A DNA stretch of 58,242 nt, counting the filler, from Dugesia japonica (Eukaryota): NCBI GenBank assembly GCA_001938525.1. It is 6 parts of 6 records of this genome, joined end to end, with 100 filler letters (N's around TTAATTAATTAA, not from the genome) between each part and the next. Parts side by side here need not be neighbours in the genome. Positions count along the whole stretch, not along the records: positions 49,775 to 58,242 come from MQRL01579992.1; 5 more parts are not named here. One strand, 5' to 3'. Made by a program: the position numbers and the translations under genes. Shown piece after piece: positions 291 to 58,242 of the stretch (positions are counted from its first letter, which is position 1; each line of letters starts with the position of its first letter). Under the pieces are notes generated by a model. It worked only from the letters and a program-made list of their open reading frames with translations, did no database searches and was not told the DNA's origin.

Positions 291-379
291 ATTTGATAAT
301 TTAATCTTTGATGTAATTAAATCATCGGAAATTTAATCCATCAATTAAATTTATTATGTAATTTTTAATTGGTAATAGT

Positions 380-2090: not shown

Positions 2091-3099
2091 TAAATTGGGA
2101 GATAATAAGTAAACAAAAGAAAAATTATTGAATTTAAGTATAATATAATAGTAGTGAAAGAGTGTAAATTGAGCAAGTAAAGTCTTAATTTTATTAGTAG
2201 TATCAATGTAATCAATGTAAACGGACTTTTAATTATGCAAACTTGGTCTAAATATACACAGATCTTAGTGTGTTTAAATAACGTAGAGCAGCAAACAAAC
2301 TTAGTTTGTGGTGTGATTGGAAATTGAGACACTCTACAATCTGACTAACTAACTGAACTAGTGAGATTCTCTTTTTGCTAGAGTTGCATGCAATTAATTT
2401 AACACATGACACTTAATGACATGATTGATATACCAATTTATAGAGATGAATGCTTTGGTTGATACACACAATCGGATACGAATATTTACATTAGTATTAT
2501 TTGATAATTATAAACATCTGCATTGATTCTCTTATTATGACATTTGCTTGTATGCCTGCACATCTTGGTTTTATTACATAAAAGAGAGTCACGAACATTG
2601 ATCAACACTATTATGTCTACTTCTGAGGTGAATAATTATTGAGAAATTATTCTAGTCATATAGAATAACAAAAATGAGAGTAAACATCAACTTTGAACAT
2701 ATATTATTTTAACATTAATAATTTTATTTCAATTACATTTTGATATAAAGAAAAATTCACAAACACATTACTTACTGGTTTATTTATTGTGATTTCTGCA
2801 ACGGGTGAATTATCGAATGAACAAGATTTGAACTAGATTTATTGAGTTTACATCGGACTCTAACTCCTTCCAAAAAAAATTAATTTGAGATAAGCGTTGA
2901 AAATTTTACTTTATATTTTTCCACTAAATTTACGATATTTCTTCGCAGTAAAATTAGTTTGGATTATCCTGTACGGACTAGTAGATTTAGTAATTTCTGA
3001 ACAATAGGTTTTCCAATACGGCAAATTAAATGAATTTTGTTGATTGTTTGACTAAAATTTTCATGGGCTTTTAAAAGATTTAGGTAACTTTTAGATAAT

Positions 3100-3400
3100 C
3101 TTAGTAAATTATTAATTACCGAGGGTTAGTTTTAAGTGAATTTGAGCAATTATTTCCTCGAGTTGGTCAGTTTGGGTCAATTTTGGATAATTTGACCAAT
3201 TATTTACTCGGTTGATGTAGTTTTGGTCAATTATATACTAGGTATATACATACTCGGTTAATTATTTGCTCACAAGGGTAATTTTTGGGTGATTGGGTCA
3301 AATTTTTCAACAAGATTGGTCAGATTGGTTAATTTGTAGGCAATATTAGCCAATTATTTCCTCAAGTGTGGTCAATTTTGGGTAATTTTGGGATGATTGT
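3100..3400. repeat. GT-rich degenerate minisatellite (TTGGTCAATT...TTCCTCG)
   Basis: Repeated ttggtcaa / tttcctcg motifs; the same family occurs at 43200-43650. Confidence 0.65.
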
Positions 3401-3499
3401 AGTAAGGATATACTAGTGTACGAGATCAGCTGACTATTATATCCCCCCCGCAGTCAGCGATTTTTGGCTTACTGACTTTACACGAAATTTTTACTAGTT

Positions 3500-3790
3500 T
3501 TCATACACAATTTATGATTTTTGTCTGGCTGAGTACAACCTTTGACTGTTTGTTAGCTCATTTTGACAGTTGTACTATTTTTTGATTGCATATTTTGACT
3601 GGTAATAACTTTTGATAATTGTTTTACTATTTTTAACTACTGTTTTATTCATTTTGACTGGCTAAGTACAATTTGTGGCTGTTTTTGTACTATTTTTGAC
3701 TGTTGGTTTGCTCATTTTGACTGCTTATTTTGACTGCTGATCTAGTATTTTGACTTTTGTCCAATTTAGACTGGTGATTATTGCTTAAGT
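3500..3790. repeat. Degenerate TTTTGACTG minisatellite
   Basis: Many ttttgactg/ttttgacag units. Confidence 0.65.
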
Positions 3791-4199
3791 ATCTATGTTC
3801 TAAATTGTAACTACAGCTTTATTGTGGTAAGTTTGTTCCACCGCCACAACTATGCTGTGATAAGTTTGTGCCACCACCACAGCAAAGCTGTGCTCAATTT
3901 TGCTGATGATCACGGCTTCGCTGTTCTCATTTAAATAGTCAATTTGGATATCATTTGTAATGAGTTTGCTGATCATTTCTAACATGCTTACCTTATGGTG
4001 AATCCTTCAAGACACTTTAAATTCTTATGTAACTGAAACAATATGGGTATTGTTCAAATTGTAATGTGATGAAAAACATTTGCAGCATGTTTACAAAACA
4101 AACAAAACTACACACAAATAATAACACAAAATAACAACACAAATTATTAAAAAAAAGAAGAAAATTTTGAATGATACACATAAACTGTTCGACTGTAAA

Positions 4200-5260
4200 A
4201 TAGGCTTTCTGAAAACTCCGGTTTTTACGATTCGACGAGTCCTAGTTCAAAATTTAAAAAACTCGCCAAGTCCGAGTTCATAGTCTTTCACAAAATATAT
4301 TACAAGAATCTGATAAAAGAATATTACATGATTTTCAATTCAACTAAAATTTGCGATTTTAAAGTCGTGCCAAGAAATTAAAAAGAAAATTTACTCAAAT
4401 TTATTATTTAATTCATTTATTTTCAAAACTTAAAAGCTTTCAAACTAGATACATAATATAACTATTTGAACATTAACGTAATTTAGGTATTCATTTGATT
4501 AAATGTTTTTTAATTCCTTATTATTATTTATTTTTGGTTTAAGGTACAATTATTTTAAAAAAACCCAATAAATTTAAAGACTTTTCAGCAAGTTTTGATT
4601 TGATTTTAAAGCACTAGTTGCTACTAATTGAAAACATTCTTTCATTAGAAGTTGAAGTTGGTTTTTTAGATAAAAGTACGCTGCACAGATCATAAAGATT
4701 ACTAGTTCGTTTTTCAGTATATCTGAAAAGCCAAAATTCTTGTTTTAGTTTGCTATAAATCGCAGAATCCTTTAGAGGTGGAAGTTTGGCTGCGTTTTTC
4801 AAAATTATTTCAATCTCTTACTTCATTGCCAAAGTTTTAGCGTTTTGATTTTCAACTATTATTAAGTCTTGGTTTGGAAAAATTGTCGTTGATTCATTAT
4901 TATCATTTACTTGGTAAAGTGTTTTTTATATTTGTGTGGCTAAGTCTAAAGCCTGTTTAGAAGGTGAACATTTTAATTTTTAATTTAAATTTACTCGCTC
5001 AATTATTCTCATATCCATGTTATATAATAATTTCAACGCGATTTTACTTTTACAGTTCGACATTTTGCTTTAATGTAAAATCAGCTGAATGCATAGTCGT
5101 ATCTTTTTGGCTTAAAACCTTAATTGCTAATTTGGCAGGTTCAAGCGAATTCTGGAGATCTTTCAGCTCGTTAAAATCGATGTGATCAAGCATGTATGAA
5201 AATTTGAGATCCATCAAAGCTTCCTCGATGAATATTTGTAGTTTAACAAATATAATTATT
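4200..5260 (-). mobile_element. hAT transposon relic (C-terminal transposase, dimerisation domain)
   Basis: LYDLCSVLLSKKPTSTSNERMFSISS matches the hAT C-terminal PxxSxxxERxFS motif; upstream LEPAKLAIKVLSQKD helix; frameshifted. Confidence 0.85.
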
Positions 5261-5269
5261 ATATTAGCA

Positions 5270-7059
5270 AGTAGATAGATATGAGCGCACTGGCATCGAA
5301 CCCCCTATCCCCCGCCCCCCGCCTTCGACTGTTTCGGTTGTTTTGATGATTTTTTATTTGTAGCTTTTTAATTGTACGTTCTGAATATATGAAAAAATTT
5401 TTCGAATTCGGGTTGGAACGGTCGAATTTTTGCTCAGGAAGGTCGAAAATTCGAATTTTCGAAACAAACTTTTTCGGTCAAATTTTATCGTATAATTTCG
5501 AATNNGATATTGATCGTCTTAGAATTGAAAGGTAAACATTTTCTATATAGGGTTTGCTATATGAATATGGTTGGTTCTCCAAGAAAAGTTATGAGCGCAC
5601 TGGCAATTTTGACCTTGTTTTATAAATTACTCAGTCAATACTTATTGTATTGCACTAAAATGATAGCATTCAATTCAGAATAAAATTCCAAACAAGTTTT
5701 GTATAGGGTTTGTTGTATAAATATACTTGGTTCAAAAGATAGGAAATTCCCGGTAACCATGACCCGCCGAGGATGGAAAATTGAACTTTAGAAATACTAA
5801 TGATAATCAAAAAAAATTTGATATGAATCTTCTTAGAATTGAAAGGTGAACATTTTTTGTATAAGGCTTGCTATGTGAATATGCTTGGTTCTCCGAGAAA
5901 AGTTATGAGTGCACTGGCACTTTTGAGCTTGTTTTATAAATTACTCAGTCAATACTTATTGTATTGCACTGAAAATGATAGGATTCAATTCAGAATAAAA
6001 TTCCAAGCAAATTTTGTNNNNNNNNNNNNNNNNNNNNNNNNNNNNNNNNNNNNNNNNNNNNNNNNNNNNNNNNNNNNNNNNNNNNNNNNNNNNNNNNNNN
6101 NNNNNNNNNNNNNNNNNNNNNNNNNNNNNNNNNNNNNNNNNNNNNNNNNNNNNNNNNNNNNNNNNNNNNNNNNNNNNNNNNNNNNNNNNNNNNNNNNNNN
6201 NNNNNNNNNNNNNNNNNNNNNNNNNNNNNNNNNNNNNNNNNNNNNNNNNNNNNNNNNNNNNNNNNNNNNNNNNNNNAAAAAAAAATAATTTGAAACATTA
6301 AAAAATTTATATAGTAAGTCTGCGCGGGGAATTTAATTATGAAGTCTGCCTTGTACGATAGTTGCTATGGATATTACCTTGACCTACATTTATTCGACCT
6401 TGAAATATTTCACCAATTAGAATTGAGNNNNNNNNNNNNNNNNNNNNNNNNNNNNNNNNNNNNNNNNNNNNNNNNNNCTCACCGAGGATGAAAAATTATT
6501 TTTTCGAGAAATACTTATGATAAAATAACAAAATGGATACTTTTAAACTCAGAATTAAAATGTTTTAATTGTTTTAAATTTTAAATGGAAATTAAATAGC
6601 TTATGATTATTTTTTTTTCAAATTTTAAATGACGATTTAATAATAAAGTAAAAAGTTTGTTTAAATTTTAATATTAAAAAAAAAATAATTTGAAACATTA
6701 AAAAATTTATATAGTAAGTCTGCGCGGGGAATTTAATTATGAAGTCTGCCTTGTACGATAGTTGCTATGGATATTACCTTGACCTACATTTATTCGACCT
6801 TGAAATATTTCACCAATTAGAATTGAGTATACTGTATCACTGACCTTAAAAACTTTAACCAATCAGAACCGAGTATAAAGAGCCAATTTGACCTTGAAAT
6901 GGTTCAGCCAATCAGAATTGAGTATCATAAGCCACTTTGACCTTGAAAATTCAACATTGAAATGTTTCAGCCAACCAGAATCGAGTATAATGAGCCACTT
7001 TGACCTTGCAAAAATTTGGCCTTGAGGGGGGTGGCTATGTGCGCCAGGATCTATCTACT
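5270..7059. mobile_element. Non-autonomous TIR element (AGTAGATAGAT...GCGCAC termini; Kolobok- or Polinton-like)
   Basis: The left end AGTAGATAGATATGAGCGCAC and the right end (reverse complement) AGTAGATAGATCCTGGCGCAC match. There is an internal ~180-bp direct repeat (5519-5705 / 5832-6017) and a TGACCTTG/CCAAT tandem array; TTAA lies just outside the right end. Confidence 0.6.
6770..7025 (+). repeat. Tandem array of TGACCTTG + CCAAT(CAG) units
   Basis: About 5 units of tgaccttgaaa...ccaatcagaat(t/c)gagtat. Confidence 0.8.
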
Positions 7060-8027
7060 GCCTTTAATTTTTTGTTGGTTATTTACTGTTATATTTTATA
7101 AATGTTGTCTGATTACTTTTTATATTAAATTAAATTATTTCGTTAAGTTGATTAATTGAATCACGTATATGTTGAATGTGTAGTCATAAAGTAATAACTG
7201 ACAGTACGATTACTCGTTTTATTTCGAAACTATTGCATAACGTTGCCATATTTACTTTTGTTACGTTATCAACAGGTGATTCCGTTGATATATTTATGAC
7301 GTAATCAAATATTTCTAACGTGATAGTGTTTGGCCAATTTTTTAATAAATTCTATGAAAAAATCGACTGTTGATTATGTAAGAGATTTTTTTGACCTCTA
7401 CTATTATTAAAATATACATCAAGTTTATCACGATATACACATATTTTAATTATATTAACCCTTAAAAATTGGAAAACTAAAATGGAAAATTAAAATTAGA
7501 AAAGCAAAAAATTAGACAAGATTTTTGTGATTCCAAATTCATTTTTCATTGTAAAAACGTATTCAATAAAATTGTCAATTATCTAATACGAATCAATAAT
7601 AAACGAAAAAAATTTTTCAAAAATATACATGATATTTCAACAGAACTATATCATATAATATGGAAAACATGGAAAACCACATGGTGATTTTCTACATTTC
7701 TACAGAAATTCTAAACATTCAAATATAAAATTTATTTTTTTTTGAAAAAAAACATTAAAATTTATTTTAAATACAAACAAATATTTCATTAAAATAAAGA
7801 CAAAGCTTCGTTCAAATTAAAATGTATTTTTAAAGAAATTCTAATTTTCGACACTTGTCTTCTTCAAATATCGAAATTGTTGAAGTTTATAATTTATTTT
7901 TGCCAAAGATTAACAAAAAGAATTTATTTATATTAATAGTTATTTGATTACTTTAAATATTTTAGTTTTAATGCGTTGATTTCGTAAATATTGTTTTTTA
8001 TAATTATTTAATTTCTAAATATAAGTT

Positions 8028-8088
8028 ATGAGTGAAAATTTGCCAATTGTACTCAGAGCATTGGAACCAATTATTGCTCCAGTATCAG
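8028..8088 (+). CDS. Possible first coding exon (MSENLPIVLRALEPIIAPVS)
   Basis: ATG-initiated open stretch, GC-richer than its flanks, ending at a strong CAG|GTAAAT donor; no recognised homology. Confidence 0.25.
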
Positions 8089-8386
8089 GTAAATAATAAT
8101 TATTCTTACTTTATCGACTTGATGTTATATTCAAATATTTTTGATTCATTCACAATATAACTTGTGATTTAGTTTATTATTGCGACCAATTTTTAATACA
8201 TTAATTTCTAATAAATTATTATTTTCTGCAATCATTGCATTAATCTTGATTTATGCGTCGATAACAATTTTATTTATTGAATATTTCAATGTTTTGTTAT
8301 ACGTAGTTAATATTTATAGAGATTAAAAAGTTAAGATGTGTGTAATCAAAAATTATTCGAAATGAGTTCAATTATTTTTTGTCAAT

Positions 8387-8486
8387 NNNNNNNNNNNNNN
8401 NNNNNNNNNNNNNNNNNNNNNNNNNNNNNNTTAATTAATTAANNNNNNNNNNNNNNNNNNNNNNNNNNNNNNNNNNNNNNNNNNNN
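8387..8486. other. Artificial contig linker N44-TTAATTAATTAA-N44
   Basis: Exactly 100 bp with a six-frame stop core; occurs five times in the window. Confidence 0.95.
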
Positions 8487-9260
8487 TTTGTTAATTGGTT
8501 AATGAAATTTAACAAAACGTTTGTGAATCAGAATAGAAACATAATTATGATGCTTGATAACTGCATCTCCCATATCGATATCAATTTATCTAATATCAAA
8601 ATGATATTTTTATATTCTAACACAACCAGTCTTATTCCACCTTTAGATGCTGAAATTATGAAAATACTTTAAAGATAAATACAAGAATCTATTGATGGAA
8701 AGGCTCATGTTTTCAGAGAAAAGCAACATGGAAAAGATATTTAGATCAATAACGATATTTAAAGCTTGTGTTAGATCAAATAAAAATTACTACTATTACC
8801 AATTNNNNNNNNNNNNNNNNNNNNNNNNNNNNNNNNNNNNNNNNNNNNNNNNNNNNNNNNNNNNNNNNNNNNNNNNNNNNNNNNNNNNNNNNNNNNNNNN
8901 NNNNNNNNNNNNNNNNNNNNNNNNNNNNNNNNNNNNNNNNNNNNNNNNNNNTCTGATGCAAATCTATAAAAAAAGATGCTATTTATAAAATTATATACAA
9001 TTTAAAAGAATACTCAGCAGAGCTTGGCCCTGGTCAATTACAAGAAATATTTTCGCTATAAAATAAGTTGATGAAGTCAAACCAGACCCTTAAATAAAAT
9101 ATTATTGGGTATTTATTCAAATAACTATTTTAATATTCATTTTGTTTTTTGATTTATTAATAAATTTAGGGTTTTTACCATAAATTGTAAAATGGTGACC
9201 ACCTCCAAAAACGTGACCACTTCTTGAGAAAGTGGTCACTTTTAAAAGGTTCCACTTTAG
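8487..9260 (+). mobile_element. pogo/Tigger-type DDE transposon relic
   Basis: MLDNCISHIDINLSNIKMIFLYSNTTSLIPPLDAEIMK matches the pogo/CENP-B DDE motif LDN..H...LSN...FLPxNTTSxxQPLDxGII. The right end has gtgaccac subterminal repeats and aggttccact (CAGTGGAACC-type TIR). Confidence 0.8.
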
Positions 9261-9529
9261 ATAGTAGTGCATTGGGTCACAACTCTACTATTGGGGTTGA
9301 AAAACTCTTTGTTAAGTGATCCAAAAAAAGGTCAATCGAATTGCAGGAATGCATGATATAAAATAAATGATCCAGAAATTGGTCAATCAGATCGAAAGAA
9401 AAGTTTTTTCCTCTCACCATGTATGTGTATATATCTATCATTATTTGCATGCAGAGATTAGATAGAACTATAAGTCATTTATTGCTTCTCACTATAAGTA
9501 TGTAATTAGGGCTTGTAAAAGCTGATGGA

Positions 9530-9720
9530 TGATAATTTTTATGTGTTGACTTAGACTTTTACTTGTTGAGCGTTAATTTATATGGGTTGGATTAGACTTT
9601 TTTGAGATGGTTTATACTTTAATGTGTTGGTTTAGATATTTTATGTGTTGAAATAGAATTTTTCTGGTTGAGTGTCAATATTTTATAGGTTGGATTAGAC
9701 TTTTGTGAGACGGATTATAA
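9530..9720. repeat. Degenerate minisatellite (TGTTGGATTAGACTTT-like)
   Basis: Repeated gttg(g)attagactttt units. Confidence 0.6.
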
Positions 9721-10459
9721 TTTTAATGTTTTCACCATTAATCTTTAAGTAGAGTTTAATTTTTGTGTGAATACATACTATATTTATGTTATGAAATGCA
9801 ATTCTAATTTGATGGATTATAAGTAGGACAATCTTTTTTAACCTTATAAAGAAGAAACATTTGACGTTTTTTGATCAATATTTTGACTTAATAATGAAAA
9901 TCTTTGAAAAATCTTTGACTTTATTTTTCTTTTCTTAAACAATTATCACTGCTTAGTAGTCTTACAATTTTTGAAAATTTAGGATTGCAAATGAAAAATA
10001 TCAAGGTTTTACATTTTATTGAACATTATAACAACATAATTTTATTATCAAATTTCAGGGGCAAAGTTTCGATCTATTGCTAAAGGTTTATTCAATATAC
10101 AAAAATTTATTTTGACAGAAGCTGAAGTAGGCGGAAATTTCATTAAAAAAATATTCCATTGGTCAAATTGATTGCTTTTTCATGTCCCTTATTGTCATTA
10201 TAAGGTCAATCTTTTATTTATCATGTTAAAAAGAAAAATTTGACTTTTTTGACCAAATTTCGGACTTTATAATGCAGATGTTTTACTCATTACTCCATTT
10301 TTCATGAATCTTCCTTCCATCTTTAAACATTAGAAATTTCTATTAAAAAATTTCATAAATTGCATAAAATATAAAATTAAATGAATAAAAGATGTTTATT
10401 TTAATATATTTTTTAAAAATCAAATATAATTTTAATATAATAAAATATAAAATTAAATA

Positions 10460-10610
10460 TTTAGTATTTTCCGTTTTTAAATATGAATTTTTAAATTTAT
10501 TTGTTCAAACAATTAATTATGTTAACGTTTTTATTTTAATAAATTTATGGAGTTGAATTCTGATGTTAATGATTCGATGAGTTTTCCAAACTCATCTAAC
10601 AATCAATATG
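10460..10610. repeat. Dispersed repeat ending in a GATGAG...CTCATC hairpin (probable Penelope terminal repeat)
   Basis: Homologous to 21585-21735 and to the reverse complement of 25745-25870, which directly follows the Penelope ORF. Confidence 0.6.
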
Positions 10611-12219
10611 AAATTTATTAAAATTATTAGAAAATGATGATTTCGATTATTTATAAATAGGAGTTTCATTTTAAACTCTTTGGATCCCCCCTTTTAAAAA
10701 TCTTTAATCTTCTCTATATTCCTTATCACTGTTTTACTTCCCCCCTCCTTGCTTATGAAGTGATATAAAAAGTTGGGTTTCAGAATTAAATAGTAAGATA
10801 AGAATGTATCCATACATTTTTTATTAAAAGGTTTCCTTCCTTATCACAAAGTCAGCTAACGGTTCATATAAATTAAATAGTTCAAAGTTCACTTAAAATC
10901 TGCTATGCCAGAATTACCAGAAAATCGTAAAAAAAGAAAAAAAAATTTATAAAAACATTTTTAAAATGTATTTTTGATATTAATCTTTCATCAAGATGCA
11001 TCAGATTTGACTTCATTAAAATTCTAATAAGATGACGGATATGACTAACTTGTTTACAAATCCGTTTATGAATAAATAACGAGATATTCATCATATAAAT
11101 TTTAAACTTAAATAAAAAATGAATAAATTATTTACTTTCAAATTGTAAATAGATAAAATTTATTTTAAAAAGATTATAAAAATTTCTAAATGTTGCATTT
11201 ATGATGTATATGTATTGATATATTTAAACAATTTCAGTAGTGAATATNNNNNNNNNNNNNNNNNNNNNNNNNNNNNNNNNNNNNNNNNNNNNNNNNNNNN
11301 NNNNNNNNNNNNNNNNNNNNNNNNNNNNNNNNNNNNNNNNNNNNNNNNNNNNNNNNNNNNNNNNNNNNNNNNNNNNNNNNNNNNNNNNNNNNNNNNNNNN
11401 NNNNNNNNNNNNNNNNNNNNNNNNNNNNNNNNNNNNNNNNNNNNNNNNNNNNNNNNNNNNNNNNNNNNNNNNNNNNNNNNNNNNNNNNNNNNNNNNNNNN
11501 NNNNNNNNNNNNNNNNNNNNNNNNNNNNNNNNNNNNNNNNNNNNNNNNNNNNNNNNNNNNNNNNNNNNNNNNNNNNNNNNNNNNNTAAATTATTTTTACG
11601 GCAATATATTATTTACAAGCGATATCTGCACACATTCATTGGCACTACCGGCTAGATACACTAACTTGATTTCAGTTATAGTAACTATTTATTGATATCT
11701 AAATTAAACGATTATTATAAAAATTCATTATTAATTTCGTTTTATATTATTTTTAGATATTTATTTTTCAAATAAAAATAAAACCATATTTAATAAATAA
11801 TAGTTTATATAATTATTAATTGTAAATAAATCCTAATGTCTTTCTTTTAATTTTATATTTATTTGGAATATAGGCTTAGCTAATAATTTCGTATTTCTTT
11901 ATTCTGTATTGTTTCGATAGCATTATTATATAAAACAAAATTTGATTATTATACAATAATTTTTCAAATATTTTTAAGTAAATGTTAAAATAGATAACTG
12001 ATATAAAAATCTGACCCGTTATTATGCATATTTAGTAACTAACAGAATATTATGTTTATTATTATTCCTTAAATAAATTTGAAAATTATTCAGTTTTCCG
12101 TATATTATTAAAAGAATTATCATATTTAAAGTCCATACTAGCACAATACCATAAAAATCTAAACCCATATCAAATTAAAGCAAGATATTTAGTAAAAAAC
12201 AGAATATCAATTTAATCAA

Positions 12220-30269: not shown

Positions 30270-30900
30270 TTCATATAACTGGAAGAAAATGCAAAGAAAA
30301 TATTAGGCGAGTTTGAACGGAATTTTGTACACAAAGCACGCACAAATACTCTTTCAATAAATGCTCGGCCTAATAACATTACTTTTGATGAAAGACTATG
30401 TTGACAATGTCATTCCCACAATGAAACAACGTCACATGTCCTACAAAGTTGTGATGTAACCAAATCATTAAGAACAAAGCGTCATAATGCATTAATTATA
30501 ATAATTGTTATAATAATTATAAAATACCCTACCTTAATAATTGTAATTGATCGTACTTGTTTTTTTGTTCCAGATTCATTAGAACTCGTTGATATTATGA
30601 TTACTGATTCGGTAAAGAAAAGAGTATTTATGTTTGATGTTAAATGCCCTATTGATTCAGCTGAAGGTTTCTTTAAAATAGAAGAAGGGAATAAAATGAA
30701 ATATTAGAATTTTAAAAACGAGATACAATTAGCAAAACTTGGTAACTATGTAGAATTTTACACTATTCCTCCTGAGACCTACCAAGTCATTCAGTACATT
30801 GGTGTACCAATAAATAAATGTTTAATAAAAAATGTGCAATCTCCAAAATACGGAATTCTGCACCTATTTGGCAATTTCGTGTATCAGGAACATATCCGCA
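30270..30900 (+). mobile_element. RLE non-LTR retrotransposon 3' end (NeSL/R2-like)
   Basis: C*QCHSHNETTSHVLQSC..RTKRHN (CCHC knuckle + RHN), then VDIMITD..KRVFMFDVKCP..F..GNKMKY (PD-D/ExK endonuclease). Confidence 0.85.
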
Positions 30901-33849: not shown

Positions 33850-34567
33850 CGGAATTTTCTTCAGTTCATATGCAACATTTTTCTGAATATCTTCCACCTC
33901 ATGAAATTCTCTTCCTTTCATAAATGTTTTCGGGTTTGAAAATAACACAAAGTCTGCTGGAGTTAAATCTAGAGAATATGGTGGATGGCCGATACATCTC
34001 CTTTCTCGGTCAAAAAACGCTTTACAATAGTTCCCTTGACAGTTAGGCTATAAAAAATAAATCGTGCAGAAATCTTTCTTTTACAAAAATCCTCAATTAG
34101 CATTTTAAGAATCGATTCTCTACTGATTTCTGTTTCGTCTTTCATCATCCTTAAAGTGATTTGTCTGTCGGTTTCAACAATTTTAATTTTATTCCGATTT
34201 TCATCATTTCTGGCGACTGATGGACATCCAATTCTCTCATTATCCATAGTATCTTTATGACCTTCATGACAACGAGAGTACCCTTAAAAATACATTGTTC
34301 TCATATATTACTTTCAACATTTCATAGGTGTCTCCATGACCATTTTATCCAATTTGTAACAAAATTCTATATTGATTCTCTTAAAAGATTAGCAGATAAA
34401 ATGAATAAACACAATTAAATAAAAAAAAATCAATAAACTTGTATTAAACAGACAGTTAATAAACTGTTTAAGAATATCTTGCTGAAAACATACAAAAACT
34501 ATGCTCACAATTGTATATAATTCGCATTCTAATAAAAGTTCAGCAACGTTATTGTCACATCTTGTAT
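33850..34567 (-). mobile_element. Internally deleted mariner relic (different subfamily from 19085-20336)
   Basis: RINIEFCYKLDK, DNERIGCPS..DRQITLRMM..RKISARFI, DLTPADFVLF..MKGREF; TIR-like tacaagatgtgacaataacgttgctgaac. Confidence 0.8.
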
Positions 34568-38082: not shown

Positions 38083-39079
38083 TATTCATACTCAAAATGC
38101 AATGATCAGTTCCATTCCATCTGAATTGTAAAGGACATCCAGGTTTTTCACTTATGCATAAATTACTGTAATATCTTCTATGACTCCATTGGCACTTTTC
38201 TATCATTTAGAAATTGAATATTTTTTTTATTAACACAAAAAAACTTTATACACTCACCATAACAATTTCTTCCTACTTGATCGTATTGTTTTGGATCACA
38301 ACCTTATAAATAATGTATTCAATAAGTTATTTCATAAATTATAAATCTCATTCCATAAAAATTAGAACAATAAAAGAATAATAAAAAGAATGTGTGTAAT
38401 TCGAAATAATATTTATAATAATATGTATAAGCAATAGAGAAACAAAAGATAAAAACCAAGAAAGAAAAAAAAGATTCCAACAATGAATCTTTGACGTGTA
38501 GTGGTTTATTTAAAGATTGCGCGGTATTATTACTCGAATAATTAAAACACAAATAACCTCTATCTAAAATACATTTCCCATCAACATTTGTGTATCGACG
38601 TGGACATCTGCTATTATGAAATCGAACACATTTATTTTTCATAGGAATTGAGTCGGATGGACAAGATTTATCGTTATTCATTGGTAAATATTCATTGCAA
38701 ACTTTTCCATCGAGTGTACCAATAAGACAATATGGATCAACAACTTCAAGAGACGAGGTAGTATCGTCATTATTTTTCATTCTTATCTTAATATAAAAAT
38801 TATGTTTTATTTTATTTATTTTTGATAATTAAATTAACTAACTTCACCCGAACTACTTATAAAATATTGTGTTTCAGCAATTCTTGAAAATTTTGTCAAC
38901 TCAAAATATAGCCTTGAAAATAATTTTAAAATTAATAAATAATAAAAAATAGATACATAAAATAAGGTTATGAAATAGTTTTATTACACCAAAATTCTAA
39001 CCATATTAGATTACTGTTTCTCAACAGCAAAAATTATAAATTGAATTACACAATAAATAATCTTGATAAAAATAAACCA
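38083..39079 (-). CDS. Secreted cysteine-rich repeat protein, 5' five exons (39015-39079, 38843-38912, 38558-38786, 38258-38302, <38083-38199)
   Basis: All four introns are GT-AG with compatible phases (2,0,1,1). Signal-like MVYFIKIIYCVIQFIIFA is followed by repeats such as CPRRYTNVDGKC, CDPKQYDQVGRNC and CPLQFRWNGTDHC; truncated by the contig end. Confidence 0.8.
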
Positions 39080-49674: not shown

Positions 49675-49774
49675 NNNNNNNNNNNNNNNNNNNNNNNNNN
49701 NNNNNNNNNNNNNNNNNNTTAATTAATTAANNNNNNNNNNNNNNNNNNNNNNNNNNNNNNNNNNNNNNNNNNNN
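49675..49774. other. Artificial contig linker
   Basis: N44-TTAATTAATTAA-N44. Confidence 0.95.
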
Positions 49775-49845
49775 TATTATTAAATAATGTTTTATTTTTA
49801 TTCCAAATCGGTAAATCGTTGCTCATTTTATAATTTTAAAAAACA

Positions 49846-50436
49846 ATGTTTAATATAACTGAAACTGAATTAAGAGACTTGATAGATTCTAATAAATCAA
49901 AATCTGTTTTAATAGATGATAAAAAGTATTGGATTGGTAATAACATGAAAGAATTAATTAAAAATGAAGAGATTAAAAATGAAAAAAAAGTGGATTTCTT
50001 CCTCTTTTAGCTTTGATTTCTTTTATTGCAAAACCCGCAGCTGTTGTAGGAGGTTTAGGAGCAGCAGCAGGAGGAGTAGCAATGGTTGTTGTAAAAGCTA
50101 GAGAATCTTCAAAATTAGGTGTAGAAAGACAAAAGGTTGAAGAATATTTAATACAATTAAAAGAAACTGGAAACAAAATTACTCAACCATTTAAAGGTAA
50201 AGGTATCGTAGAAAGTTATAAAGGAAACGGCATTTATTTAAATCCCTATCAAGTAAAAGGTGTATACAATTTTATAAAGAATTTAATTAATCAATCAAAC
50301 TTGCCAGAAAACTTGCCAATCAAACTTGTCAATAAAATAAGTAATAAATAAAACAGGTAAAAAATTAAAATTAGGTGGCATTGTTAAAATAAAAGCATCA
50401 AAACATGGTTTAGAAATATATATGCGTCCTTATTAA
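49846..50436 (+). pseudogene. Polinton/adintovirus virion core-like (pX-type) protein, two frameshifts
   Basis: ATG 49846, frameshift in the A-run near 49985, then SGFLPLLALI..GGLGAAAGGVA..GKG..GNGIYLNPY; frameshift near 50350, ending HGLEIYMRPY*. GFLP / AGG / GxGxYLxPY is a recurring motif set in these elements. Confidence 0.75.
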
Positions 50437-50449
50437 TGAATATTTAAAA

Positions 50450-51125
50450 ATGTATGAAAATAGAATTGCTTTATTGAAACAATTAATCAAAGAACAAGAT
50501 AAATATAATAATAAAGAATTATCTGAAAAAAACTGAAGCAACAATTCTAAATGATGTTTTAACTCAACAACAAACACCTACATTAAAAGCATTAGAAAGA
50601 ATAGATAAAACATTATTAACACACAGCTAGCTTCAATTAAAAATACTAAACAAACTAAACCAGCTATTAAGGATAAAAAGGAATCACAAAAACAACAACA
50701 AACACCATTAATTGATTCTGATAATTATGAACCGTTTGATATGAATAAAGATATTACTAATTCGATAACAGCAACAATTTGTCCTGCATTTACAAAAAGA
50801 AAAAATAAATTATTTAAAATTTAGAATTATAACTATTAATAAGCATCCTTTTATGCTTTATAAAAGAAATGGAACACAAAATATATGGTCACAATTAGAT
50901 AAAATTGAATTTGAATTTAAAAATGATTTAAAGAATTTAATGCTAGGTAACTCAAGTAATAAAGATGAAATTAAAAAATATTTAAATTTATTATCTTTAT
51001 GTAAATCAACTTCGTGTAATTATATTAGAAGTTTAAAACATTATGCTTTATCTAATAATGGACCAATAATTCAAGAAGGAAGAGGAATTGAAATAATAAG
51101 TCATCTTAAAAACATTTGGTATTAA
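50450..51125 (+). pseudogene. Fragmented hypothetical viral protein
   Basis: Continuous coding-like sequence (MYENRIALLKQLIKEQ..TPTLKALERID.. to ..GRGIEIISHLKNIWY) broken by frameshifts. Confidence 0.5.
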
Positions 51126-51165
51126 TACTAAAACAAATTTTGATTTAAAAGAATACTCTATTCAA

Positions 51166-51519
51166 TTGAATTTATCTGGTAAAATATTAATGAATGACGA
51201 GCTTTATAAATTAAAAACAACTAAGAAATACAACGTTATTATTAATTATCAAAACTCAAATAAAAACGGATCTCACTGGGTTTGTTTTAAAGACAGACTG
51301 TTTTATTTCGATTCATATGGTATTAAACCTACAGATAAAGTTGAAGCTTTTTTAAATATAGATTATTTTTATAACAAAATACAATTACAACCAAATGAAA
51401 CAAATATATGTGGTATATTATGTCTTTATGTTTTATATATGTTAAACAGTACAGATATTTCTTTTGATAAAATTATTGATTCTATTTACTCTGATTTAGA
51501 AACACTTTTGAATAAGTAA
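51166..51519 (+). CDS. Adenain-type cysteine maturation protease
   Basis: IINYQNSNKNGSHWVCF..YFDSYG..QLQ....ICGILCLYVL: catalytic His, Asp, Gln and Cys all present; 5' end probably frameshifted. Confidence 0.92.
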   Translation: MNLSGKILMNDELYKLKTTKKYNVIINYQNSNKNGSHWVCFKDRLFYFDSYGIKPTDKVEAFLNIDYFYNKIQLQPNETNICGILCLYVLYMLNSTDISFDKIIDSIYSDLETLLNK

Positions 51520-51553
51520 GTAAATTACTGAATAATTTATCACAAATAAAAAA

Positions 51554-53004
51554 ATGAGTACTTTTATACATACAAGCAAATCTGGTTCAACTATTCAATC
51601 AAAGGATTTTAATTTAGAAGATGTTATTAAGCATACTGAGGCTAAATTAGCTAAATCTTTAGAATACAAGTTACATAATAAAATTACTAGTGAGATAAAA
51701 AATCTTGATAAAGTTTATGTAAATGAATCGGGTGATAAAATAAAAAAACTAGAAGTTATTCAAGAACCTAAAACTGATAATGATGTTGTAAATAACAAAT
51801 ATTTAAAGAAATATACTGATCAATTTAAAAAGGATCTTCTTCGTGATACAGATAATAAACACAGTTTAGAATAGATACATTTATTACTAGAGTAAATGAA
51901 ATGATGGAAACTAAAATATCAAAATTTAAATCTAAATTAGATAAAGAAATTAAAGCTTTAATAGATAAAGAAATAAGTTCTTTAAAGGATACAGTGAAAA
52001 AAATCGAGATAAAATCAAATGATAAAGTTAATCAAGTTACATTTAATACTTTTAAACAAGATCAGGATAAAGAAATGGAATCTTTAAAAGATAGCGTGAA
52101 AGATGTTGAGTTAAAACCAAATGATAAAATAAATCAACTTACATTTAATACATTTAAACAATATCAAGAAACAATGATTACTAATAAATTAAATAATAAT
52201 AATTTACCATTACCTTTCTTTAAAAATTTATATATTAATACTTTTAATAGTGATTTATTAGCATACATTAATAATAAAAGAGCATATGAGAAAACTTTAT
52301 AGTTTAAAAATTAGGTTTTGGTTATCATCTCATTTTCACTTTGGTATAGATATTATAAATGATCATTTAAATTATGAAGATTTAAGTGGTAATGGATTAA
52401 CTATAAAAAGAAAACCTGATTTAAGATTGAGAAATACACCATTAGACAATACCACTTCCCATAAATGTTTTTATTTAAATAAAAAAGATCCGTTTATTTC
52501 TAATTTATGAATTTAGACGTAACTTTGTTTTTATTATTCTTTTTAATAGAGAAAGTTATTCTGATTCCAAAGGCGCGTTTATTAAAGGAGGTGAATCAAA
52601 TAAAAATATAATAGAAGAATATAAAGGATATACAAATTATACAATACGAATAATTATATCATGATCAAAAAATTAATTTAACTTTCTTGAATTATCCTCC
52701 TAAACCTTATCCTAATTTATTATATATCGAAAAGAAAGGAAATCAAATTATTCTTAATCAAAATAATCGTCAAAATGAACAATGCATTAATATAAAAAAA
52801 GATTTTGAATTTGGTAAACTAGTTATAGGAGATATAAATACGAGCGGATATATTTATGAGTGTTTATGTTATGAAGCTAGCGACAAAATAAATAACAATG
52901 ATATATTTAGACAATTTTTCGCCCTTTATACTACACAAGCAAGAGTAGCTCGTGATGTTAATAATAATAATAATGAAACAATTATAAAAGCAAAGTTTTA
53001 TTAA
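51554..53004 (+). pseudogene. Putative fibre/spike protein: stalk motifs, coiled coil, LamG/ConA-like C-terminal domain (4 frameshifts)
   Basis: VYVNESGDKI and PKTDNDVVNNKYL stalk-type motifs; duplicated 34-aa repeat; IRFWLSS..EDLSGNG and LVIGD...GYIYECLCY. The ORF-track pieces join by single-base shifts. Confidence 0.6.
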
Positions 53005-53055
53005 AGCATAAAATATTAATTTTATTAAAAATATAAAATCTTAATTTTTTTAAAA

Positions 53056-53675
53056 ATGGAGAAAGAATATGATAGTATTTATCCTGATACAAATGAAGAA
53101 GATAAATATTTAGATCAACCAGTAAAAACTGCATCTTTAGCTGATTATAAGAACAAACTTAAAACATTAAGAATTAAAGATTTTGTAAATGATTTAACAT
53201 TCTTAACTGATAAAATAAATCATTATAATAAATTATATAGAAGATGGAAAATGTTTGATANNNNNNNNNNNNNNNNNNNNNNNNNNNNNNNNNNNNNNNN
53301 NNNNNNNNNNTTTATTTGGTGCAGCAGGTATAACAATAACCGTTTTAGCTACAAGTGGTATAGTTATTTTAACTTTACCTGTTAATATACTTGGTGCATT
53401 TCCTTTACCAAATTTAATTATTCATGGTCTTTTAAACATTGGCTTAATTAAAAGAAGAAAATAAAATATAATGATTTAATTAAAGAATTAGAAACTAGTA
53501 AAAATAAATTATTTCTATATCATCAGAAATGTTTACATAATAATATATTAACAGATGAAGAAATAAATACTAGTAAAACAATTGTTAGTGAAATCAAAAG
53601 TAAAATATTAAAGATTAAAACAGATAGTATAGTTAATAATATTAAAGAAACAGAAAAAAATAATACTTTTTATTA
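53056..53675 (+). pseudogene. Membrane-active (GasderminX-like) Polinton protein
   Basis: Basic helix HYNKLYRRWK, Gly/Ala-rich hydrophobic hairpin, then KKYNDLIKELETSKNKL..KCLHNNILTDEE; gap and frameshift inside. Confidence 0.65.
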
Positions 53676-53805
53676 ACAAAGCTAAAGAAAATGGAATATT
53701 TAATAAAACAAGCTGCGCCAAAAAGTACTAAAGAAAATAAGTTAGAAATAGATTATAATTGTTTAAATTGTAAAAAATTAAAAGTTAAATTTAATATTTA
53801 AAAAA

Positions 53806-54193
53806 ATGTTGCAAATTAATAATCATATTAAAAAAATTGGTATTAACCATGTATTAGAAAATAAAATTAAAGAAGAATATAATAAAATTCCACAACATAA
53901 TAAANNNNNNNNNNNNNNNNNNNNNNNNNNNNNNNNNNNNNNNNNNNNNNNNNNAAAATTGGTATTAACCATGTATTAGAAAATAAAATTAAAGAAGAAT
54001 ATAATAAAATTCCACAACATAATAAAAGGCTGCAATCTAATTTCCTGGCCACTTTATATTTAAATTTATTTCATCCTAGTGAGGTTTATGAAAAATTTAA
54101 CTTTATCGAAGTATTAAAAAATTATAATGTATATAATGGTAATTTATTTACTTGGAATGATCCTCGTGCAAATCTCTATAATCGATGGGTGTA
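53806..54193 (+). CDS. Small hypothetical viral protein (spans a gap with duplicated flanks)
   Basis: MLQINNHIKKIG..NKRLQSNFLATLYLNLFHP..WNDPRANLYNRWV* once the gap duplication is collapsed. Confidence 0.45.
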
Positions 54194-54235
54194 AGATGTG
54201 TAATTAGTCAATTAAATTTTTAATTATAATAAAAT

Positions 54236-54556
54236 ATGTCAAACGAAATGATTAATTATTTTGTTAATAGTAAAGAATTTAAAAATGAAATTAACGATGA
54301 TTATATAGCTGTGAATAATTTATCACATGCAAATAAAATAGCATTAGCACCTGAATTATTTGTAAAATTAAAACAATGTGAAGCAGCTGTAAAATTAGCT
54401 GGTCAAACAATTATTAATTTAGATATTGAAAATGAGGTTTTGGTTCAACAACTAGAAAAGTATGATAAATATGATCAAGAAGTAATAGATAAAGCAATTA
54501 AATTAAAAGAATTAGAAGAATCTGATAAAGATCATCATCATAGATTAAAACGTTGA
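54236..54556 (+). CDS. Hypothetical coiled-coil viral protein
   Basis: Intact 106-aa ATG ORF in the viral gene run. Confidence 0.55.
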   Translation: MSNEMINYFVNSKEFKNEINDDYIAVNNLSHANKIALAPELFVKLKQCEAAVKLAGQTIINLDIENEVLVQQLEKYDKYDQEVIDKAIKLKELEESDKDHHHRLKR

Positions 54557-54793
54557 TTATTTCAAATTTTAGACCAGTGTAAGAATATAAAATAAAATAA
54601 TAAAGCAAATATTGAACCAATAAATAAAATACTTTGATTTTTATCTCTCTCTTCTATAATATTAACCAATATATTTAACTTATTGCAAATATAGCTTAAC
54701 TGCGCCGATTTTATCTCAATTTCAAAGCGTACGAGATGTTTATTCATCTCATAAAATATTTCTTCATCTGTTTGTTTTCTTGTATTGTTTTTG

Positions 54794-55237
54794 TTAATAT
54801 TTGAATTTTTTATTGTTGGTAATTGACCGCGGTTGATCGTGGTTGTTTGAAGTCAGGATTGTCCGCGGTTTGTCGCGGCCAATTTGAGACAATGCGAAAA
54901 AGTGATTTGTTAGATATTCAAGTTCTTTATCAGTAAAATCAATTAAAAAGTTTAAATGTTCAAAATCAATAATTGATGCATTATGTATCACTATAAAATT
55001 AATTAAATCTTTATTACTTTGCTTTGAATATAAAGATTGTAATAAATATATAAACGATTTTAAATATCGCATATATTTATAGTAAGTTTTTCTTTTTATT
55101 TGAAAATCTGTTTCTAATGTAAAAGCTTCTAACATTTTCGGCACGCTTTTGAATTGTTTATTCTGTTGTAATAAAAATATTGATGCAATAATATTATAAA
55201 TTTCTATAAATGTTTTCTTGTTATTAGGAACAGGCAT
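54794..55237 (-). CDS. Hypothetical viral protein
   Basis: Intact 147-aa ATG ORF downstream of pPolB. Confidence 0.55.
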   Translation of the reverse strand: MPVPNNKKTFIEIYNIIASIFLLQQNKQFKSVPKMLEAFTLETDFQIKRKTYYKYMRYLKSFIYLLQSLYSKQSNKDLINFIVIHNASIIDFEHLNFLIDFTDKELEYLTNHFFALSQIGRDKPRTILTSNNHDQPRSITNNKKFKY

Positions 55238-55488
55238 TTTTATATATATTAAATTCGATTATTATTTAAATTATCATTATAAAATCTTTTATCTATTTTG
55301 ATTAGACTTTAAAATTATATATTCTTGAAGCTTTGTTGTTTTTTCGCCATTTATTTTAAAATAATTTATTACATCTTGAAATTCTTCTTCATTTAAGATA
55401 TAATAATGCTCATTATCTTTATTACAATAATTTTCATTCATATTTTTTATAATTTTTATTAATATTCATTAAAAAGTTAAATTAATAT

Positions 55489-58242
55489 TTATGTTAAATA
55501 ACTTCCATTGCAATATGGAATGTTAATTATACTATTGCAATAAAACCTTTTTTCATCATATAGATATTTTATTTTGTTTTATTGTATAAACTTTATGTAA
55601 TTTTGATCTAATATTATAATTAATATTATATTGCAAATTTCAGTTCTTTATTGCATCTTTGTAATTACTCATATGTATTTCTTTATCGACAACACTTTTA
55701 CTCGTTCCTTTATTTTTCTTTTTCTCTTTATTATCTTCATTTATAAAACAATATGATTTTGATTTTAAAGCACAAAATTCTTTCATTAATTTACCTCCTA
55801 ATTCATCTGCAAAATAACCAATTACATTTTTACATATAGTCAAATATTCTTGAGTTAATTGTAATTCTCTTGCAACAGCGCTATTTATATCATAATTTCT
55901 GAAGTCAAATATTTATTTAAAATTCTTTTCTCTTATTTCTTTATATAAATCATCTGATTTGATATTAAACATGCAACTATCCGTATCTGAATATAATGGT
56001 GTAATATCTAATTTAGGATTTAATTCTTCATAAAACGTTTGATACATATGTAACTTTGATAATTCTAATATAATAAATCCAATATAAATTGGTTTATTCT
56101 TTTATATTTGTTTCTTCACAAAGTGACAAGCAAAGAGATTTTCATCAAATTGTTTTAAACTTTTAAATGTTGGTTTAGAAGTTCTTTTTATCAATTGCTC
56201 TGATGTATTAACTAATTCTATATATTTTCTTATTCTTAAATTCTTAATTGTTTTACCGAAGAAGCCGTTATTCATTAATTTCCATAAATCTTTCTCAAAG
56301 TCAGTTGTTGCAGCAGTTCTTTTTCTTGTATTATAATCTATATAATCTTTTAACCATGGTTTTTCTCTAAATGAAACTACTTCGTGTATCTTTGTTACAA
56401 CCATTACTTTTTGAAAATAGTATTCTAGATTTTTCCAATATGTAATACTTTTTCGGATTTAAATCTAAAACTAATTTATCTGTTTCAACAAACTTTTGTT
56501 TTGATTGAATTAATAAATTTCTTTGATAATTAGATAATCCATTTCTATTTATCTTTCTTTTTTCTGGAACTCATAGATATTTCATATTAGCTATTTTTGC
56601 CGCGTCATCTTTATATTGTAAATCAACTTGAAAATCATAACCAACTCATTATTATGTATTTATTTTCCTTTATTAAATATAAATGATAATGCTTGCATCG
56701 GATTTTGATTCATTTTATCAAGTGCTTCTCTTCCCGCTTGTTCAAATTGACTATAAGGCAAAGCTTGAATAATTGAATGACCATATAATTTATTCGCATC
56801 GATATATAATAAAAAATTTGATTCTAAACTTTCTTTCAGTTTACTAGTATTTTCTCTTTCTATTTTAAAATCATTTAATATATTTTGAAATTCTTTTTCA
56901 TCAGGGTATTCATAATATTCAAAATCTCCATTAATATATTTATTATTCGCTTTAACATATCTCTCTTTTAATATCGTTGAGATTCCTCTTATTTCTCTTT
57001 CAAAGAACTCGAAAAATTCCTGTGCATGTAATAAATCTAATGAAATTCCTGTGTTTTAAACCTTTTTTACATGTTAATTGAGAGCAGAAATAAAATAAGC
57101 TAAATTTAATTCATTTATGCTTCTAAATTTTTCCATTGCATCAGCCATAATATATACATCCACTTTATTATATAGAATTGTATAATCAAGGAAATTCTGA
57201 CATCTAAATATTTGATAAACGTATTTATATCTTTTATATTCATCTTCGGTTATTCCTTTTCATTTAAAGTTGAATAAAACGATTCTATTGGTAAAGGAAA
57301 AAATCTACCATTTAAATAATAATGTGTTTTATATTATTTTGATGGTTTATCAATCTATTCGTATTGATAAATTTCTTTTTTCTTGATTAAGTCAAATGAT
57401 GCATCAGAAGAAACTGATTCGAGAATTGCTGATTCTATATTTAATCCTCCACTTATATTATTAGTTATTTCTGTATTTATAGGATTACTAATAATATCAT
57501 TCGTAGTATTTCCTGAAGTTAATCTTATAATATCTCGAATTAATCTAAATAATTCTTCTTTACAAAAATTATATAATACTTTACTTTCTTCTTTTGTTAA
57601 TGATTTTGATATTCCCTCTATTGAGTTTTTCAACATTCGATAACTATCTAAAAATCTCACTTTCCCATATAAAATTGACAAATAATTCTCTCCTGTTTTA
57701 GGTATTATATCTATTTCATCTACCTGTCCCTTTAATTTAGTTTTCTTTGCTAATACTTTTATAATTAATTGAAAATCATATCCACTTCCATTTTGAAAGT
57801 ATATGGGTAAAAATAAATTCTTCAAACTTAGATTTTAATTACAGCTTTTATGTGCTGCTCCTCTATATTTTCCATTAAAGTGGTCGTGGTCTAATACCTT
57901 ATCCCCACACAAAGGTTTTTCACAAATCCAACAATCAGAAGAATTAGCATAATTAATCAAATCATCTTCTGTTGGATTTGCTTTTATAGGTTTTTAAAAA
58001 ATAATTCAAGTATGTTATACATTGCATTTTCTATTCCGATGACAAATTTAATAAACTCTTCCATACAGTTATATCAATAGAAAACTTTAATACAATCTTG
58101 CACTATTTCTTGATATAAAGATTTAAAATAGATCGTAATTGTATCTGGAATATTGTTTTTAACTATTATTGTGTTAGTAGTGATAAAATATATCTTGGTC
58201 TATAAGCTAAATTTGCTAATTTCACAGAATAGGTTGATTCTT
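55489..58242 (-). pseudogene. polB: Protein-primed family B DNA polymerase with endonuclease VII-like Zn domain; disrupted, 5' end outside the window
   Basis: CWICEK..VLDHDHFNGKYRGAAHKSCN*, FQNGSGYD, FLDSYR, YNKVDVYIMAD, YIDANKLYG, KLMNNGFFGKT, KPIYIG, YSDTDS, FADE, ALKSKSY, KNKG, DEKR; several frameshifts and stops. Confidence 0.95.

Follow-up and report, generated by a model that had tools for sequence, protein, structure and literature searches.

Adenain and a protein-primed polymerase (pPolB) are both present in adenoviruses, so this pair of genes does not define Polinton-like viruses, as the preliminary description of the locus had assumed. In Starrett et al. (PMC8502044), polintons are instead defined by PolB together with a retrovirus-like integrase. 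The same paper describes the Beta-class adintoviruses, or group 1 Polintons/Mavericks of animals, which carry adenain, a PF03175-poor PolB and a pX-domain gene along with membrane-active and fibre-like accessory genes, and which occur in animal hosts where degraded endogenous copies are found. Of the Maverick loci in vertebrates, 96% are degraded, and in some hosts the defective copies run into the hundreds; the large defective expansion in axolotl and tuatara was termed perplexing (Barreat and Katzourakis 2021, PMC8097293).

To this background we add a locus from a window of 58,242 nucleotides of a Dugesia japonica assembly, the window being the whole stretch of DNA analysed. Its last 8.5 kb is very probably one decayed germline Polinton/Maverick copy, truncated by contig ends and belonging to an adintovirus-type family that is widely multiplied in an AT-rich animal genome. 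The locus appears to share the listed characters of the Beta-class elements, whose accessory genes include GasderminX (pX-domain) and Cupiennin. The partial contig has no match to a three-member cupiennin-like profile, and its pX gene, which begins with a short, basic N-terminus, lacks a PLA2 domain. With the defective vertebrate Mavericks it shares a two-module layout, a mostly degraded state and amplification to hundreds of copies; vertebrate Mavericks are nevertheless absent from its named matches, and copy number is here indicated only.

Extent and gene content

The window contains five artificial linkers (starting at 8387, 17526, 26318, 37983 and 49675), each composed of 44 N, TTAATTAATTAA and 44 N. 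Position 49775 directly follows the last linker, which makes the left edge the end of a contig, and the element lies on a separate, unplaced contig without a host junction; the right edge (58242) cuts through pPolB. Polinton target-site duplications are 6 bp long, and neither a terminal repeat nor a host junction was found in the window. Profiles for the rve integrase (32 members), the A32/FtsK packaging ATPase (35 members) and the double-jelly-roll major capsid likewise found no match in this incomplete contig, and one wrong-strand score of 6 bits to the minor (single-jelly-roll) capsid profile was taken as chance. Capsid, ATPase and integrase are thus missing from the window, as had been stated, and with terminal repeat and junction also absent the integration of this copy is not directly visible. 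The features are given in Table 1.

Table 1. Features of the Polinton/Maverick remnant and the adjoining linker, in window coordinates.
Feature	Coordinates	Strand	Remarks
Artificial assembly linker	49675-49774	.	100 nt; the element's contig begins after it
Polinton/Maverick (adintovirus-type) remnant, very probably	49775-58242	both, convergent	8.5-kb broken piece
pX-domain core/membrane-active remnant, without PLA2 domain	49828-50438	+	frame-split near 50000 and 50350, the latter judged by eye
Coiled-coil-rich broken gene	50438-51125	+	broken into four pieces across frames
Adenain-type (clan CE) maturation protease	51100-51519	+	139 codons stop to stop, open
106-aa ORF, possible fibre N-terminal repeat	51554-51874	+	5.9 bits against fibre-like family
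Broken gene	51901-53004	+	4 pieces; 102-nt tandem repeat at 51964-52169
Two-transmembrane-helix gene remnant	53056-53676	+	3 pieces around N gap
ORF interrupted by N gap with 72-nt duplicate	53809-54194	+	no Pfam or PHROG match of note
106-aa open ORF, last of + module	54236-54556	+	no match to Pfam, related-locus families or PHROGs
61-aa ORF, hydrophobic C-terminus	54562-54747	-	nothing significant in Pfam or PHROGs
147-aa open ORF	54794-55237	-	phrog_9178 (function unknown), E 1.6e-4
50-codon mini-ORF, duplicate of pPolB insertion before motif A	55289-55441	-	just downstream of pPolB
pPolB with EndoVII/HNH domain, pseudogenised	55470-58242	-	P0003 homology; 3' end by eye, approximate
EndoVII/HNH domain of pPolB	57838-57993	-	

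The convergent arrangement described near 54560 is borne out by the last + ORF ending at 54556, the first - ORF ending at 54562 and the purine fraction flipping from 0.574 to 0.426 at the same point. Within the 8.5 kb, homology was found for the pPolB, adenain, pX-like and membrane genes, which supports the original identification of a Polinton/adintovirus-like segment with meeting structural and replication modules. For the claim that the segment is TE-free, the repeat comparison, limited to the rest of the window, gave one 26-nt match. Of the two N gaps inside the contig, one (53905-53954) is flanked by a 72-nt exact duplicate, most likely an assembly artefact. Among 28 ORF pieces EndoVII alone passed the Pfam cut-off, 13 ORFs compared with PHROGs gave one match below E 0.001 (function unknown), and Rfam had 0 matches within the window. 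Several ORFs had been called unrecognisable; some turn out to be parts of frameshifted genes that other Polintons also carry in related form, and several still have no assignment. For the 147-aa ORF, the Atlas held no usable match and a single-sequence model (pLDDT 41) was unusable.

Homologs of the protease were recovered from 12 of 16 candidates (the unnamed proteins P0154-P0165) at 40-77% identity, and H59, D71, Q97 and C104 are invariant across 13 aligned rows. Its AF2 model (pLDDT 84) has the adenovirus 2 proteinase as Foldseek top match in the PDB (E 2.9e-4), with adenovirus, adomavirus and virophage proteases among the top fold matches; in the protease structure search the Terrapene adintovirus adenain ranked 8 (E 1.4e-4), although the structural alignment with it shows only 22% identity. 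A PDB sequence search with the protease alone gave nothing significant, and a profile search reached adenain at E 0.2. Fold and catalytic residues uphold the assignment as adenain; the start of the gene, as placed in its family, seems to fall outside this frame. A homolog is present in 17 of 60 loci fetched by pPolB.

The proposed core-like gene is a pX-domain gene with 12 homologs (37-49% identity), with which both window pieces align. Adeno_PX (PF05829) matched 6 of the 13 rows in the alignment, below cut-off, but neither of the two rows from the window, and the family profile matches PLA2X-type proteins of other Polinton loci (E 3e-11 to 1e-9), best on their C-termini. The membrane-active gene was also correctly recognised: the two-helix remnant, for which map labels suggest the name 'SLATT-like', matches a five-member family of other Polinton loci (L006, L009, L028, L048 and L051) at 13.5 bits, a score reached by none of 200 shuffles (hhalign E 2e-4); Atlas matches to one of its pieces were all under 0.9. 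The fibre-like claim fares less well, since the match of the 51554-51874 ORF is weak (3 of 200 shuffles score as high) and, at the level of sequence, hints at a fibre-like protein. The following broken gene (51901-53004) is possibly a fibre or receptor-binding protein, without profile support; the label of fibre head found no support, 134 of 200 shuffles scoring as well, and no PHROG matched below E 0.01. For the coiled-coil-rich gene, the label of large conserved gene of related loci likewise found no support (91 of 200 shuffles scored as well).

The polymerase, its relatives and its insertions

The placement of pPolB on the - strand was confirmed with tblastn against P0003 (E 2e-139, 39% identity), covering P0003 residues 420-1258 of 1290. 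The N-terminal ~420 residues fall beyond the window end; in Polintons this terminus comprises the TP and vOTU domains (PMC11161782). Six of the seven motifs sought are present (ExoII, ExoIII, PolA, PolB, PolC and KxY), and the ExoI motif was not found in pPolB. In Pfam, the pPolB pieces matched PF02945 at E 3e-6 and PF03175 at E 5e-4, the latter below cut-off (19.6 bits against 25.8). Among 6178 candidates, 93 were pPolB relatives; 22 of these carry a PF02945 label and 7 a precomputed PF03175 label, and the five that are named, most being unnamed, are all annotated in animal genomes.

The first tree was built from 95 trimmed rows, 36 near-duplicate or long-branch rows being removed by hand and 3 more by length, and a careful tree from 32 of the 95. 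In the 32-row tree the window pPolB is sister to P0003 (ENA) and P0004 (NCBI), both unnamed, with support 93/91, and this clade stands apart from the sequences named for Ladona, Planococcus, Loxostege and Hydractinia. None of the IMG/VR-locus polymerases placed in trees joined the clade. The window pPolB is probably of the Beta class; PF03175 was found at E 0.01 in none of five full-length relatives, and the tree contained no named Alpha or Beta reference sequence. Even against P0003 and P0004 the window protein is 34-38% identical by BLAST.

Lineage-specific insertions in pPolB had been proposed. Two insertions do exist, but one is common to P0003, P0004 and P0005 and so marks a clade, not this element. 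It precedes motif A and measures 47, 47 and 50 residues within this group, against 18-19. The other, in the exonuclease region, differs in length within the group (84, 67 and 34 residues). Insertions of homing endonucleases in polinton pPolBs are already in print, and a literature search found no paper joining adintovirus, endonuclease VII and PolB. The mini-ORF downstream of pPolB copies the insertion before motif A, with 72% DNA identity over 119 nt (55322-55439 against 56831-56948, E 1e-10) and 45% amino acid identity over 42 aa, and it also matches the same insertion in P0003.

The suggestion of an undescribed lineage holds insofar as no close relative with a name turned up: the best pPolB identity is 38% by BLAST, or 44-45% over aligned core columns, and public databases contain only distant, unnamed relatives of the family. 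A phage collection gave no match, IMG/VR was empty in single-protein scans and returned only distant loci in profile scans, with no close relative, and a metagenome scan gave 10 distant loci (28-48%). None of four motifs was found in the Starrett supplement, in a part that possibly lacks the sequence compilations.

Decay, amplification and competing explanations

The genes are not intact, a point missed in the preliminary description. The pPolB is broken into five pieces that fall in different frames; over 865 codons it has 13 in-frame stops, with all three stop codons represented, at least four frame changes and a longest stop-free piece of 159 aa. Each of the pX-like, fibre-like and membrane genes occupies 2-4 frames. 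Intact core reading frames, the mark of an active autonomous copy, were not found. The segment is an endogenous fossil, degraded and belonging to a high-copy family, and not a genome segment of closely packed, working genes. Matching contigs at 80-99% identity number 6681, 7929 and 7575 in the three DNA runs of one species (3/3), with 30 of 30 bins covered; in the X1 run, 639 are at 99+%, 1548 at 95-99%, 2438 at 90-95% and 2056 under 90%. Since thousands of contigs in this range together cover the whole stretch, the family is large, diverged and endogenous, although summed contig depth indicates copy number only and gives no true count. In one poly(A) RNA library, 158 of 13.6 million reads match, 121 of them under 90% alike. 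No RNA run is among the indexed runs listed for the sampled 31-mers, and the share of these words stays at or below 0.20 in every indexed run, so that nothing outside its own assembly yielded this exact copy. An animal host is supported by a PIM-like kinase piece on a different contig of the window, with its best named matches in arachnids and a mussel (41-44%).

The low word share would also fit an assembly in which many copies were collapsed or joined into a mosaic, so that the family is real, part of the decay is assembly error and the exact sequence is not one locus; the two N gaps, the artefactual duplicate and the lack of any single matching contig spanning the stretch point the same way. 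We nonetheless consider this unlikely: common variants combined in a mosaic would be expected to raise the number of words shared with host runs, not lower it, and the low share can be explained by contigs dropping rare variants. Moreover, at many sites nearly all matching contigs differ from the window letter, as private mutations would, and the contigs differ widely among themselves. Less probable still is an active virus, either free or integrated only recently, whose genes are intact and perhaps read with another genetic code or with introns, as the preliminary description implied for an intact segment. Its tight packing, the strand-purine switch, a few open ORFs including most of the protease, and a 53-codon pPolB insertion without stops (equalled in 12 of 5000 shuffles) are in its favour, but the broken pPolB and the near absence of matching RNA in the library speak against it. 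A full-length pPolB is not restored by genetic code table 6 or table 4 (longest region pieces 389 and 159 aa), and introns have no room because 566 P0003 residues match 565 codons colinearly; the segment is therefore intronless, as described, where this was tested. The active-virus reading is largely refuted for this copy, with no bearing on other copies of the family.

Least probable, and only marginally credible, is a passively captured virus of another kind with adenain and pPolB, adenovirus-like or Polinton-like without integrase. The window's lack of an integrase and the range of viruses among the protease fold matches agree with it, but none of the 93 pPolB matches is named as adenovirus, integrase-profile matches occur in 32 ORFs of 77 related loci, and the high copy number suggests self-driven integration. 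L006, one of the related loci, combines matches to rve, A32 ATPase, double-jelly-roll and PX. For the decayed Polinton/Maverick copy, family knowledge suggests that the ancestor's linear DNA would have been copied by protein priming and packed in a double-jelly-roll capsid, its core precursors matured by the adenain protease and its entry into the chromosome mediated by the rve integrase. Its genes for capsid, ATPase and integrase would have sat in the part not assembled here, and the copy would now be unable to replicate itself and be drifting.

Since animal genomes often contain degraded Mavericks, there is nothing unusual in the find as such. As a bolder and rather doubtful proposal, the family may be an undescribed deep Beta-type Polinton sub-lineage, so far seen only as unnamed environmental proteins, with hundreds of copies in one animal and a family-wide mini-gene duplicated from the clade-specific palm insertion of its own polymerase. 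Such a mini-gene could have acted on the partner of the polymerase, as a free decoy or as a regulator. The mini-ORF may be a small gene newly born from a duplicated polymerase insertion. A host-less metagenomic clade of pPolB and protease is now tied to an animal host, and the locus suggests a host in which defective Mavericks have expanded greatly and in which copies could be dated.

Layout and decay of the polymerase gene

The element consists of two opposed modules, with + strand genes running from about 49830 to 54556 and - strand genes from the window end to 54562, and the purine fraction switches from 0.574 to 0.426 where they meet; ORF strands and purine flip both bear out the convergent arrangement proposed in the preliminary description. 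In the - strand module, tblastn with P0003, the best database relative of the protein-primed DNA polymerase B (pPolB), aligned over 420-1258 of its 1290 residues with 39% identity (E 2e-139). The motifs ExoII, ExoIII, PolA, PolB, PolC and KxY were found, and a search for ExoI in the window pPolB did not find it. The N-terminus falls past the window edge; those of the two nearest pPolBs, P0003 and P0004, are C2H2 zinc fingers.

The window pPolB gene is dead: it lies in five pieces in differing frames and contains 13 in-frame stops over 865 codons, an approximate count since some stops lie close to piece borders. An additional C-terminal frame change was seen by eye only and was not confirmed by a follow-up comparison. 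Alternative genetic codes were considered as a source of the breaks, and tables 6 and 4 restore no long frame; introns have no space in the C-terminal two thirds, because 566 residues match 565 codons, colinear with P0003.

Among related pPolBs with precomputed Pfam labels, PF14528 occurs in P0032 and P0043 and PF14890 in P0032, which we take to be LAGLIDADG and intein families. In the window pPolB, the score of an EndoVII/HNH domain exceeds the Pfam cut-off and that of PF03175 falls short; the EndoVII/HNH family is also carried by 22 of 93 pPolB matches, and homing-endonuclease insertions are already described for polinton pPolBs (bioRxiv 10.1101/2023.08.22.554363; PMC11161782).

Alignment with other pPolBs places two insertions in the window copy, each motif pattern used for the spacings being matched in 7 of the 15 rows examined. 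The exonuclease-region spacing is 84 residues, versus 67 in P0003 and 29-36 in five relatives, and this insert was once coding, because it is free of stops, as are only 12 of 5000 shuffles. The spacing before motif A is 47 residues (P0003, 47; P0004, 50; P0005, 40; three distant relatives, 18-19), which makes this insertion a clade marker, since it is long in those three relatives as well. The proposal of lineage-specific insertions therefore holds as to their existence, and the one before motif A is common to P0003, P0004 and P0005. The mini-ORF copy of this insertion is identical to it at 72% in DNA over 119 nt and 45% in protein over 42 residues, and the differences by codon position (17 first, 6 second, 12 third) weakly hint that both have been under coding constraint. 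The bin holding the mini-ORF is covered by host contigs at >80% likeness, which suggests that other family copies carry it too; it may have been either a working mini-gene or the product of a chance duplication.

Features in the element and on the other window contigs
Feature	Position	Strand	Remarks
50-codon ORF, copy of the pPolB pre-motif A insertion	55289-55441	-	just downstream of pPolB
Protease ORF	51100-51519	+	
Membrane-family gene	53056-53676	+	
PIM-like Ser/Thr kinase piece	24183-24557	-	Pkinase E 3e-20; other contig than the element
418-aa open ORF	13160-14416	+	84-nt (28-aa) acidic His-rich repeat, 252-nt higher-order unit; Pfam: no meaningful match
153-aa cysteine-rich ORF, hydrophobic C-terminus	38319-38780	-	Pfam: no match
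Piece resembling the zinc-knuckle / restriction-like endonuclease end of R2/NeSL-type non-LTR retrotransposons	15784-16176	-	Pfam: zero matches
Second piece of this likeness	30405-30707	+	Pfam: zero matches
Piece resembling a mariner transposase	33969-34283	-	Pfam: zero matches

Structural module and contig setting

The protease ORF has 12 homologs (40-77% identity); all lie on short contigs, and their names are uninformative. The clan CE active-site residues His, Asp, Gln and Cys do not vary across 13 rows, and a weak profile alignment pairs the His and Cys with adenain motifs; the model of the ORF (pLDDT 84) has adenovirus proteinase as first PDB match, and in BFVD the adenain of Terrapene adintovirus ranks 8th. 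A frameshift breaks the first + strand gene, whose family comprises 12 proteins; in the alignment, 6 of 13 rows give an Adeno_PX match that stays below cut-off, and the family profile reaches PLA2X-type proteins of other Polinton loci (E 3e-11 to 1e-9). The membrane-family gene matches a two-helix family present in five related loci, with a score that none of 200 shuffles reached. The fibre-like label given earlier is weak at 51554-51874 (3 of 200 shuffles) and unsupported at 51901-53004 (134 of 200), and six ORFs or broken genes in the element were assigned by none of the searches.

Profiles built from the fetched loci for integrase, ATPase and both capsid proteins gave nothing credible across the whole window, in agreement with the reported lack of these genes there. 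Among 60 loci retrieved with pPolB, 17 contain a protease homolog as well, and one locus, L006, carries matches to rve, A32, double-jelly-roll and PX; from this linkage and gene set, the related loci are typical Polintons.

The window contigs are AT-rich, 8-12 kb each and unrelated, and are joined by an identical 100-nt linker (N runs around TTAATTAATTAA) at 8387, 17526, 26318, 37983 and 49675, so adjacency across the linkers is meaningless. Because it begins at the first base past the last linker, the element is a separate unplaced contig, and its left edge at 49775 is not a host junction, the leftward sequence being unrelated. On these contigs, the kinase piece shows 41-46% identity to its 12 best matches, the best named ones being from arachnids and a mussel (41-44%), which indicates an animal assembly without singling out a group. 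Two different 31-nt tandem arrays of ~8 copies apiece lie at 1-270 and 12222-12471. At 6277-6827, 18522-19143, 21046-21539 and 53833-54026, exact or near-exact duplicates lie on either side of 50-N gaps, typical of overlapping contigs scaffolded across a gap.

Family size, relationships and significance

The element is partly present in 8 of 24 listed sequencing runs, all from one organism, at no more than 0.20 of sampled words. At 80% likeness, three DNA runs yielded 6681, 7929 and 7575 contigs that together reach every one of the 30 bins, and the majority are <95% alike to the element. Summed contig depths of about 130 to 11,800, which are no copy number (listed single pieces, 4-16), would fit a family with roughly a hundred diverged copies or more. 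The sequence may itself be a mosaic assembly, as the exact window copy was recovered in none of the listed runs and host junctions were not observed. In one poly(A) library, 158 of 13.6 million reads match; because these are few, diverged (121 <90% alike) and partial (151 only partly on the element), there is no clear transcription of the window copy in that library.

Unrooted trees without named Alpha or Beta adintovirus references (FastTree, 115 and 95 rows; IQ-TREE, 32 selected rows) agree in topology and place the window pPolB as sister to P0003 and P0004 (support 93/91, below the level that the program marks with a star), within a clade of 14 rows of unnamed proteins (100/99). Named insect and Hydractinia matches and all included IMG/VR loci fall outside. 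The long window branch (0.87) is inflated by neutral decay. Starrett et al. use the PF03175 match of PolB as class criterion (PMC8502044); because this profile matched none of five full-length relatives, the polymerase looks Beta-class on that sequence criterion, the trees holding neither class as reference. In addition, 32 Polinton-type pPolB loci (L046-L077) lie inside prokaryotic metagenome-assembled genomes, several within one, and are most likely eukaryotic or viral contigs assigned to the wrong bin.

Behind the observed homologies, layout, decay and many diverged copies, the family mechanism would comprise a linear genome replicated by protein priming, capsid assembly with core precursors processed by adenain, and insertion into the germline through an rve integrase encoded in the unassembled part. 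Candidate glycine motifs for adenain processing occur in the pX-like gene, scanned with what we presume to be the processing motif. The window copy is most likely inert; a fossil fragment is to be expected, because 96% of vertebrate Maverick loci are reported as degraded (PMC8097293). The preliminary description is confirmed in part as observation and supported in part as interpretation: its convergent Polinton layout stands, and most of the genes are broken. Left standing are the link of an unnamed pPolB clade to an animal host, the large expansion and the duplicated insertion.
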